Shown: positions 38,601 through 41,600 of the stretch, in pieces
Position numbering within the stretch: position 1 is the stretch's first letter
Layout of the letters: every line of letters begins with the position of its first letter
Origin: Leucoraja erinacea
Lineage: Eukaryota
DNA length: 64,000 nucleotides
Reading direction: 5' to 3'
NCBI RefSeq assembly: GCF_028641065.1
Contig: NC_073378.1
Coordinates: forward strand, 13,578,001-13,642,000
The notes under the pieces: model-generated
The model's database searches: none
Seen by the model: the letters and a program-made list of their open reading frames with translations, nothing else
Told to the model about the DNA's origin: nothing
Translations under genes and position numbers: made by a program

Positions 38601-41600
38601 AACCTCCGGGAACCGCACGGAAACCTTGGGTGGGGCGCAAAGTCTCCAGAGGTTTCCGTTCAGGTTTCCTAAGTGGGACAGGGGCATACGCATGACCAAG
38701 GATTGTTGACTTCAGGAGGGATAAATCAGAGATCCATGAATCTGTCTTCATCAACAGGGCTTCACCCCAGACTGAAGAAGGGTCCAGACCCAAAACATCA
38801 CCCATCCTTTTTCTGCAGAGTTGCTGCCTGGCCCGCTGAGTTACTCCAGCACTTTGTGTCTATCTTCATCAACATTCATGGTGGAGGGAGTCAACAGTTT
38901 CAAGTTCTGGTTTGAAGAACTGTCCTGGGGCCAGCACATCGATACAATCACACAGAGAGCGCATCAATTCCTCTACTCTCATAGAAGATTGATAAGATTT
39001 GGTATGTTAACAAATAGAATGTTTGAATATCAAACTTCTACAGGTGAATGGTAGAGAATATACTGACTGCTGCTTCACTGCCTGGTTCCGCCTGGTTCCG
39101 CAACTGGAACGTGCCGAATGAAGTAGACTACAGAAAGTGGTAGACACTGCCTCACCCATCATGGGTGCTCACCTCTCCACCATCAAAGGAATCTATACAA
39201 GGCACTTTTTTTTTTTAACAAAGGCTGCCAATATCATCAAAGACCCACACCACCCAAACCATGCCCTTATTTTGCGACTATCATCGGGAGGAAGGGTACA
39301 AGAACCTAAAACCGTGACCACCAGGCTCAAGAACAGATTCTGCCCAGCAACCATCAAACTCTTGAATACAGTACAACACTAACATCAACAACTGTGACCT
39401 TCTATGGATTATGTGGATTTAGTTGCACTATGGACTTTGACTTTTTTGCACTATTATGTTTTATACCTTTAATTGTTTGCTTTATAAAACCCTGGGGCTG
39501 CGAGAGGTCGTTTTAGAGAGTGATTTTTTTTTGATTATACAAGGCCATAAAAATATACCTTTTGACTGTCTTTCGGCGGTTATTGTAGGTGAATGGCCCA
39601 GCCTTAGGCTGCAAAATCACACAAATCAAAGATTCAATAACATTCATGGACTTTGATTTTTCCATGTTTTCATTGTATTTTTGATTACATATTGTGTGAA
39701 AGTTAATAAATAAAACACATTTTCAGAACATGAAAATTGACTCTTGTTTCGTGACAGCAGTTAAGACCCTGCTTCTATAAAGTAAGGTAGTCAGGATCTC
39801 CTGGATGCTGATCTCTGGAAGTGGTGGAAAGTCCTTGTACTACTAGTGCTGGTCTGATCTTGTGAGGGTCCTGGGCCACAGATGAGAATGGAAAATGGCA
39901 GAGCTCCCCGGAAAGTACAGTGGAAATTTTACATCAGATTGGAGGGAAGCGGAGAAAATTGACGCCAATGTCTCCAGCATACAACACTGCTCAGCCTTTT
40001 TGAAATGGTAATCCAATTTCTGGAAGAATATGCCAGATTAATTCCACAGCACAGAAACGAGAAACAGCACCCATGAAGAAATAGATTGGGAGGGATTCAG
40101 CTTGGCTTCCTTTAGAAACATAGAAATTAGGTGCAGGAGTAGGCCATTCGGCCCTTCGAGCCTGCACCGCCATTCAATATGATCATGGCTGATCATCCAA
40201 CTCGGTATCCCGTACCTGCCTTCCCTCCATACCCTCTGATCCCCTTAGCCACAAGGGCCACATCTAACTCCCTCTTAAATATAGCCAATGAACTGGCCTC
40301 GACTACCCTCTGCGGCAGAGAGTTCCAGAGATTCACCACTTTGTTAATGCATGTGAGATTTCGCTCCCAGGGCTAACGGAATCAAGGGATATGAGTAAAA
40401 AGCAGGAACAGGGTACTGATTTTGAATGATCAGCCATGATCATATTGAATGGCGGTGCTGGCTCGAAGGGCTGAATTGCCTATTCCTGCACCTATTTTCT
40501 ATGTTTTGTTATCATCCATTGCTCATATTCCAATGGAACCAATATTGAGGAATGGGTCCAAATGGCAATCAATGTCATACATTTAATTAGCACCAGTGAA
40601 CAGAGATCAATTTATCCCCACTTGAATGCTCATTTTATATTTTAGAAGTTTAATTTCTCATATACAGGGGTCATATTTTTAATTTTAAAGAAGGGCAGCA
40701 TTAAAACTGGAAAATGATTCATTAAGTTCTATTGCAAGCTGTCGTTGTACCTTCCACAGCCGTTGCACCATGTATTTCTGTAGAAGGATCTGGGACTTGA
40801 GACGAACCTTACATTGTTTAGCTTTCTCTGCAATGTTAGTTAGCCAGGGTTGTTTGAGACACTGGGCAGCACTTATTCTTGCACTGCAAGGGAAAGAAAA
40901 AGGAATGTCATCTCTCAGTTTATTGGAGCTGTGGACATTTTACTGATTGTTAGTGGCATTTACAAGATTTCAGTTGCAGCAAAATTAAAAGTAACAATCA
41001 CACGCACAGAATATACTACCATGCATTAATTCACTGAGAGTCCTGTTTTGTAGTTTGTATTTTTTAGGTCAGGGCATGGAATTTAAGCACAAGAACATCA
41101 AGTACATGCACAGCTCAAAGTACACCCAGCAATGGCCAGAAAGTCAATTAAATGAATGTACAGAAGCAAATGCTATTTTAAATTCACATTTCAAACCAAA
41201 CGCCTCAGCAAATTCTATGACTATTGCGATCCACAAGGCATCAGAATTGTTTGGGTAGGATAAGCAAACTGAGATGTCACTATTAGTCTGTCATTGTTTT
41301 TATATTTGCAGTTTTCCTAGAATCCTTCTCACCTTTCTACCTAAATTAAAATGATAGTTAAGGGCCTGTCCCACGAGCATGCGGCCTGCATGCGGCAAGC
41401 GCGACCTAAAGGGCTGGTCCCACCAGCATGCGCCTGCATGCGGCAAGCGCAACCTAACGTGGTCGCTTGAGCCGTACGGCCAAACGGGGCCGGTCCCACT
41501 TCGATCGCCGGAGCCGTATGGAGTTGTGCGGAGCTGGTCCCGACATCGCGCGGGGCTTGCCGGCCCGCAGCTGCCTCGACGCCGTGTCACTCACTCGACC

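Follow-up and report, generated by a model that had tools for sequence, protein, structure and literature searches.

The stretch of DNA analysed here (the window) comprises 64,000 nucleotides of the Leucoraja erinacea genome (RefSeq assembly GCF_028641065.1, contig NC_073378.1, positions 13,578,001 to 13,642,000) and contains the 3' half of a myosin light chain kinase gene, located on the minus strand amid many repeats. The exons of interest, referred to as C, D, E1, E2 and F, are listed in Table 1. Exon D has 100% identity with RefSeq proteins of Leucoraja erinacea, and five of the six exon combinations built from the window reproduce C-termini of the stored proteins in the gene's cluster; the D-E2-F combination corresponds to the C-terminus of P0121.

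Table 1. Features of the kinase gene, in window positions.
Feature	Position	Strand	Evidence
Kinase exon C (activation/P+1 loop, DMWS motif)	56052..56182	-	tblastn of P0002; C-D splice in contigs of X1 and X2
Kinase exon D, end phase 2, joins E1 or E2	55174..55326	-	tblastn; contigs
E1, 79-nt cassette exon, end of kinase domain, phase 0 end	51622..51700	-	D-E1-E2 contig of X1; D-E1 and E1-E2 contigs of X12; 2X4F alignment
First 48 nt of E2, dual-coded: read in the ancestral frame behind D, as 15-aa tail and TAA behind E1	40836..40883	-	
E2 long form, 133 nt: end of kinase domain, autoinhibitory segment, start of calmodulin site	40751..40883	-	contig of X2 running C-D-E2 and onward
Internal E2 donors: after nt 71 (40813, AAT|GTAAGG) and nt 76 (40808, AAG|GTTCGT)	40808..40813	-	C-termini of RefSeq models P0125 and P0122
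Exon F, coding part: rest of calmodulin-binding site; 3' UTR once E1 is included	32553..32633	-	E2/F peptide match to 2BBM

Identity of the gene and its surroundings

In order to identify the gene, a tree was built from 63 kinase cores, each cut ahead of E1/E2. The skate kinase core falls in the MYLK4 clade with a support of 99/93, and the bony-vertebrate MYLK4 sequences group with it, apart from MYLK2 and MYLK3. The MYLK4 clade is sister to MYLK2, while MYLK3 and the cyclostome kinases lie outside; a single long-branch E1-type row (P0279) is the exception, being placed outside the MYLK4 clade. The best PDB match is 2X4F (human MYLK4) as well. The skate gene is hence a MYLK4 orthologue, for which the database names differ (MYLK2, MYLK3 or MYLK4).

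The introns are filled with degenerate LINE reverse transcriptase and endonuclease fragments (positions 33774-37101 and elsewhere), presumably CR1-like, and with many SINE-like repeats. A MITE-like element with 123-nt inverted arms that are 94% complementary is found at 41358-41765, ~ 470 nt upstream of the E2 acceptor. The sole stretch of N letters in the window (305 letters, 17168-17472) lies ~ 15 kb downstream of exon F.

Two reading frames of exon E2

Both E1 and E2 complete the phase-2 codon of exon D at their start and both end in phase 0. In its usual reading E2 is entered after one base, and its two ends are AG/GT. When E1 precedes E2, the same letters are read in a shifted frame giving a 15-aa tail and a stop at nt 46-48 of E2 (40838-40836), so that the phases and the tail proposed in the first-pass annotation are borne out by the exon frames. 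An open stretch of 15 codons is ordinary in itself; what goes beyond chance is the junction evidence together with the match of frame across species.

E2 displays three donors, after nt 71, 76 and 133, situated 23, 28 and 85 nt behind the shifted-frame stop respectively. The two short ones, both within 30 nt of that stop, take out the regulatory segment or its first half. Use of the 71-nt donor puts a stop at the junction with F (8 of 58 chondrichthyan models), and one coelacanth model and one crocodile model have the same end; the 76-nt donor (9/58) removes 19 aa, among them the Trp that opens the calmodulin site. Neither short donor appears in the seven contig pieces listed over the exons, and none was seen on E1 transcripts.

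Under the ~ 55-nt rule drawn in PMC13247117, these distances bear on NMD. The earlier description of an NMD substrate, with the stop 85 nt before the E2/F junction, would apply to the long donor at 40751 and not to the two donors that it had missed, with 23 and 28 nt; therefore, decay is predicted for the long-donor form alone. With the long donor, found in the single listed E2 contig of X1, a share of the E1 transcripts would be degraded unless the NMD rule is leaky at this gene.

Splice junctions in sequencing runs

The E1-E2 junction (51622>40883), which the first-pass annotation had proposed as a check, was found in assembly contigs of X1 and X12, that is, in two of four runs and in two organisms. 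Alignment on E1 alone gave, for X1, a 138-nt D-E1-E2 contig with a depth of 6.6, and X12 shows depths of 134 for D-E1, 101 for E1-E2 and 9.6 for E1 running into its intron; contig depth, which is low in X1, is not an expression value. In both runs the loose ends of the E1 contigs correspond to E2 (its first 28-29 nt), for which reason the idea of a separate terminal exon between E1 and E2 was dropped; no loose end leading from E1 to F was observed in either of the two runs carrying E1.

The other reading of E2 is seen in X2, where one contig runs through C, D and the long form of E2 plus 44 letters onward, without E1. In X1 the contigs break exactly at the end of D and at the start of E2, as a branch there would make them do, and the single listed E2 contig passes the long donor without a break; with this donor the stop is 85 nt ahead of the junction, a distance for which NMD is predicted. 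No contig covers E1 in X3 and X4, which does not in itself prove its absence. Hence E2 is joined in two ways, D-E2 (X2) and D-E1-E2 (X1, X12), and is read in two frames according to the upstream splice choice. E2 is thus dual-coding at the transcript level, as had been suspected.

These are contig-level junctions and not read counts, since the first alignment, over 40400-56300, was swamped by repeats and listed seven contig pieces on exons. The RNA status of the runs is guessed: none is on record as RNA, which says nothing about expression, and X12 is flagged 'probably DNA' despite its spliced contigs. In the raw-read runs X21 and X24, exon C had next to no depth. Read-through of E1 into its intron (51621-51022) occurs at the depth of 9.6 in X12 and in 4 of 58 chondrichthyan models; the sequence of the E1 donor (AAG|GTCCCT) departs widely from the consensus.

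Isoforms in cartilaginous fishes

The isoforms are already predicted in RefSeq. Among 58 chondrichthyan models, which as database isoforms are predictions, 29 end in the long form of E2 followed by F, 9 in E2(76) and F, 8 in E2(71) with its stop at the junction, 7 in E1 and shifted E2, 4 in E1 read-through and one in D-F, while E1-F is found in none. The shifted tail measures 15 aa in all seven models (skate, stingray, zebra shark, two bamboo sharks, catshark and chimaera). Both frames are kept across distant species, namely in models of skate, stingray, three sharks and chimaera (six pairs tested), and also crocodile.

Since E1 is joined to E2, and E1-F occurs in 0/58 models and 0/2 runs with E1, E1 is a cassette exon whose inclusion recodes E2 and not one of a mutually exclusive pair. 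Indeed, the two exons show the homology and the compatible phases of such a pair but not the use of one exon or the other.

At the wobble sites of the overlap, 8 of 16 vary among six chondrichthyans, which were chosen for having the tail; the count covers dual-coded sites alone. In these six species T is kept at the stop-making wobble site and no premature-stop base is present at the 3-4 sites that would allow one. An Asn codon with T as its third base readily yields the stop at codon 16, and half of the wobble sites vary, as just described, so that these sites can be explained without selection on the tail sequence.

Origin of E1

Aligned without gaps, E1 and E2 share 26 of their first 43 nt, compared to 23 for the best of 10,000 shuffles. 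By this identity E1 is a tandem duplicate of the 5' half of E2, in line with the duplicate exon assumed at the outset. Lamprey, hagfish, MYLK2 and MYLK3 possess the E2 type only. In the skate MYLK3 paralogue, for instance, D is followed directly by a 133-nt exon; E1 is absent, and the shifted frame has no stop at codon 16. E1 is carried by chimaera, elasmobranchs, ray-finned fishes, lungfish and tetrapods, from which we infer that the duplication would have taken place in the MYLK4 stem, before the split of cartilaginous and bony fishes.

No E1 was seen in ten coelacanth models, which show E2 in the ancestral frame or other ends. Among these models (P0026, P0028, P0143-P0149 and P0022) an intact E2 in the ancestral frame is found, and the 10 residues that follow D at the end of P0028 are unexplained. 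Homologue searches returned 5 proteins with the E1 and tail region as query and 13 with E2.

The bony-vertebrate tail and E2

The skate E1 form aligns to human MYLK4 (PDB 2X4F) through E1 into the tail, and the human tail, given as 15 aa long in the first-pass annotation, is indeed of that length in the database (P0182). In order to compare tails with E2, a profile was made from 30 non-MYLK4 exons and used to score each tail shifted by one base, as an average over synonymous codons. From 112 distinct non-chondrichthyan E1-type ends, 27 tails were hand-picked as lineage representatives, excluding aberrant models and those with read-through or E1-F; for tails of 13-14 aa the stop served as the anchor. 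In 72 of these 112 ends E1 and tail together are 38-41 aa long, with a length of exactly 41 aa in 39.

The +1 frame beats 2000 shuffles at p<0.05 in 26/27 tails, Anolis being at 0.052, although the tails are related by descent and the p-values are not independent. The +2 frame scores negative in all 27, and none of ten intron read-through controls passes the +1-frame test. Nine tails score above the best of 3000 random 15-mers (5.0 bits), with 22 and 21 bits in two turtles, 22 in the tailed frog, 19 in alligator, 16 in axolotl, 15 in manakin, 10 in lungfish, 6 in cuckoo and 5 in Varanus. The human tail alone is weak (-4.3 bits, p 0.007, ~ 99th percentile of random).

Furthermore, a single DNA stretch with 32-33 of 48 nt in common with skate E2 can encode both the tail of crocodile (P0212) and, in the ancestral frame, the RRLTAAQSLKHPWIN that another crocodile model (P0217) has after D; 0 of 20,000 shuffles fit both frames. 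A warthog pair gives a two-frame fit of 26-27/48 nt to skate E2, again with 0/20,000 shuffles fitting. These nucleotide identities are derived from paired protein frames and not from genomic DNA. Behind the tail exon or E1, decayed F-like relics are present in warthog, vole, musk deer and lizard models, and in the warthog model the tail exon would measure ~ 73 nt with its stop ~ 25 nt before the last junction. Together, the 26 passing tails and the two-frame fits uphold the tetrapod part of the homology claimed earlier and support the view that the bony-vertebrate MYLK4 tail is E2 in a shifted frame.

One leading lysine varies in mammal and bird tails (P0091/P0184/P0185 and P0093/P0199), which suggests tandem NAGNAG acceptors. 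In crocodile, turtles and tailed frog (P0217, P0102, P0116, P0251) the tail exon reaches, in its ancestral frame, scores equal to those of sharks; therefore, these tetrapods may continue to splice D to E2.

Calmodulin control and the proposed mechanism

The peptide encoded across E2 and F is matched, at E 8e-7, by the calmodulin-binding peptide of MYLK2 in PDB 2BBM, so that D-E2-F carries an autoinhibitory segment and a calmodulin-binding peptide after the kinase domain. By analogy with MLCK biochemistry, in which the kinase is autoinhibited until Ca2+/calmodulin binds (PMC3114093), the D-E2-F product should be held inactive in the same manner. Since D-E1-E2 is devoid of the regulatory segment, and mammalian MLCK4 is described in a review as constitutive and Ca2+/calmodulin-independent (PMC9782806), the skate E1 form is predicted to be calcium-independent. 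AlphaFold predictions for the two isoforms were of poor quality (mean pLDDT 40.8 and 45.0) and were left unused.

In the mechanism that we propose, E1 is optional: without it, D-E2-F keeps the calmodulin site, and with it E2 is shifted by one base, the D-E1-E2 transcript stopping 15 codons into E2 and likely being translated as a calcium-independent kinase. Escape of this transcript from NMD is predicted by way of the short E2 donors, which lie within 30 nt of the stop. As for the order of events, we infer that the 5' half of E2 would have been duplicated in tandem in the MYLK4 stem, E1 closing the kinase domain instead of E2, and that most bony vertebrates would then have fixed E1 inclusion, E2 surviving as a short tail exon in the shifted frame and F as a decayed 3' UTR. 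Fixation of E1 would be the route by which mammalian MLCK4 lost calmodulin control. The earlier proposal that a duplicated exon frameshifted the regulatory exon and so removed this control is supported by the E1-E2 contigs, the homology of E1 and E2 and the frame match of the tails. We hold the full mechanism, that is, the E1-driven frame switch with both forms in the skate and its fixation in bony vertebrates, to be probable, the homology of the exons being much surer than translation and enzyme behaviour in the skate.

A separate MYLK2 may be missing from the skate genome: with 99 of 291 candidates scored, a MYLK2 query matched MYLK2/3/4-like exons at this locus and at the MYLK3 paralogue (C17) alone. 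A missing MYLK2 could be a reason for the gene to keep both forms. We would give even chances to the wider reading in which skates and sharks retain the ancestral switch, a single MYLK4 gene making both a calmodulin-regulated, MYLK2-like kinase and a calmodulin-independent MLCK4 through skipping or inclusion of the duplicated exon, covering for the MYLK2 not found in the genome, and in which human MYLK4 would be the same switch frozen in its frameshifted position, with the old calmodulin-binding exon decaying in the 3' UTR.

Alternative explanations

It is unlikely that skate E1 is mainly a poison cassette, whereby E1-E2(long)-F would be degraded by NMD to tune the output and the shifted frame would have been put to protein use later, in bony vertebrates. 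Such a role agrees with the 85 nt separating the stop from the long donor, with X1, where E1-E2 is present and the listed E2 contig runs through that donor, and with the runs lacking E1 (D-E2 in X2; X3 and X4). However, E1 encodes a kinase-closing segment conserved from chimaera to human, needless for a pure poison exon, its junction with E2 has a depth like that of its neighbours in X1 and is deep in X12, and two donors lie only 23 and 28 nt from the stop. Moreover, peptides are reported for many predicted NMD targets among dual-coding regions in the preprint 10.64898/2026.05.28.727796.

The first-pass annotation had suggested that NMD enforces mutual exclusivity of E1 and E2. An arrangement of this kind, with E1-F as the useful product and E1-E2 as a by-product cleared by NMD, seems very improbable. 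The homology of the exons, their equal start and end phases, which would keep E1-F in frame, and the E1 intron read-through (4/58 models; low depth in X12) could be expected under it, but E1-F is absent from all 58 chondrichthyan models and both E1-bearing runs, leaving the suggestion unsupported, and the bony-vertebrate product is E1 with shifted E2. We give still less credence to a real frameshift in the skate accompanied by a tetrapod tail from an unrelated exon, alike by chance. The low identity between the human and skate tails and the marginal human +1-frame score would fit such a coincidence, whereas tails of turtle, alligator, tailed frog, axolotl and lungfish reach 10-22 bits against a random maximum of 5.0, and the crocodile and warthog two-frame fits and the F relics downstream argue against it as well. 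Fixation of an E1-driven frame switch hence remains the preferred explanation.

Relation to known systems and significance

Mammalian MYLK4/MLCK4 (2X4F; PMC9782806) is the orthologue of the skate gene and has the same E1 segment and 15-aa tail, without a calmodulin site. The mammalian MYLK4 models examined show the short form or decayed relics alone, whereas the skate also makes, out of the same exon, the full form with the calmodulin site. MYLK2 and MYLK3 carry the same autoinhibitory and calmodulin-binding segment as D-E2-F but have a single exon at this position and no E1.

The dual-coding region of the ATP2B genes is a calmodulin-regulated tail. In ATP2B1-4 (PMCA; preprint 10.64898/2026.05.28.727796), tandem exon duplication, a two-frame exon and alternative C-termini are likewise combined in an ancient vertebrate gene; there, however, both frames persist in humans, whereas in MYLK4 the shifted frame is standard in most bony vertebrates and the old one is decaying. 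DRP-1/DRP-1beta (DAPK2) is another kinase of the MLCK/DAPK branch that loses its calmodulin domain by splicing, conserved in vertebrates, but through a separate terminal exon that is swapped in, and the abstract describes no frameshift or dual coding (PMC3050894). No paper on a frameshift origin of the MYLK4 tail was found in the main texts of the open-access literature searched. MYLK does not occur in the main text of PMC8373072 or of the dual-coding preprint (10.64898/2026.05.28.727796), and PMC8041868 deals with an N-terminal variant. The type of mechanism, a dual-coding exon after tandem duplication, is known from ATP2B.

The dual-form origin would account for annotation that names the same shark gene MYLK2, MYLK3 or MYLK4 depending on the species. 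It would offer a concrete and testable origin for the one calmodulin-independent myosin light chain kinase, namely a half-exon duplication that frameshifted the regulatory exon, and a clear case in which an alternative frame became the standard frame of a vertebrate gene. The decay of the old frame appears graded, its signal being strong in turtles, crocodilians and some amphibians and faint in mammals. With both forms coming from one gene in living species, a regulated and an unregulated kinase could be compared on the same catalytic core.
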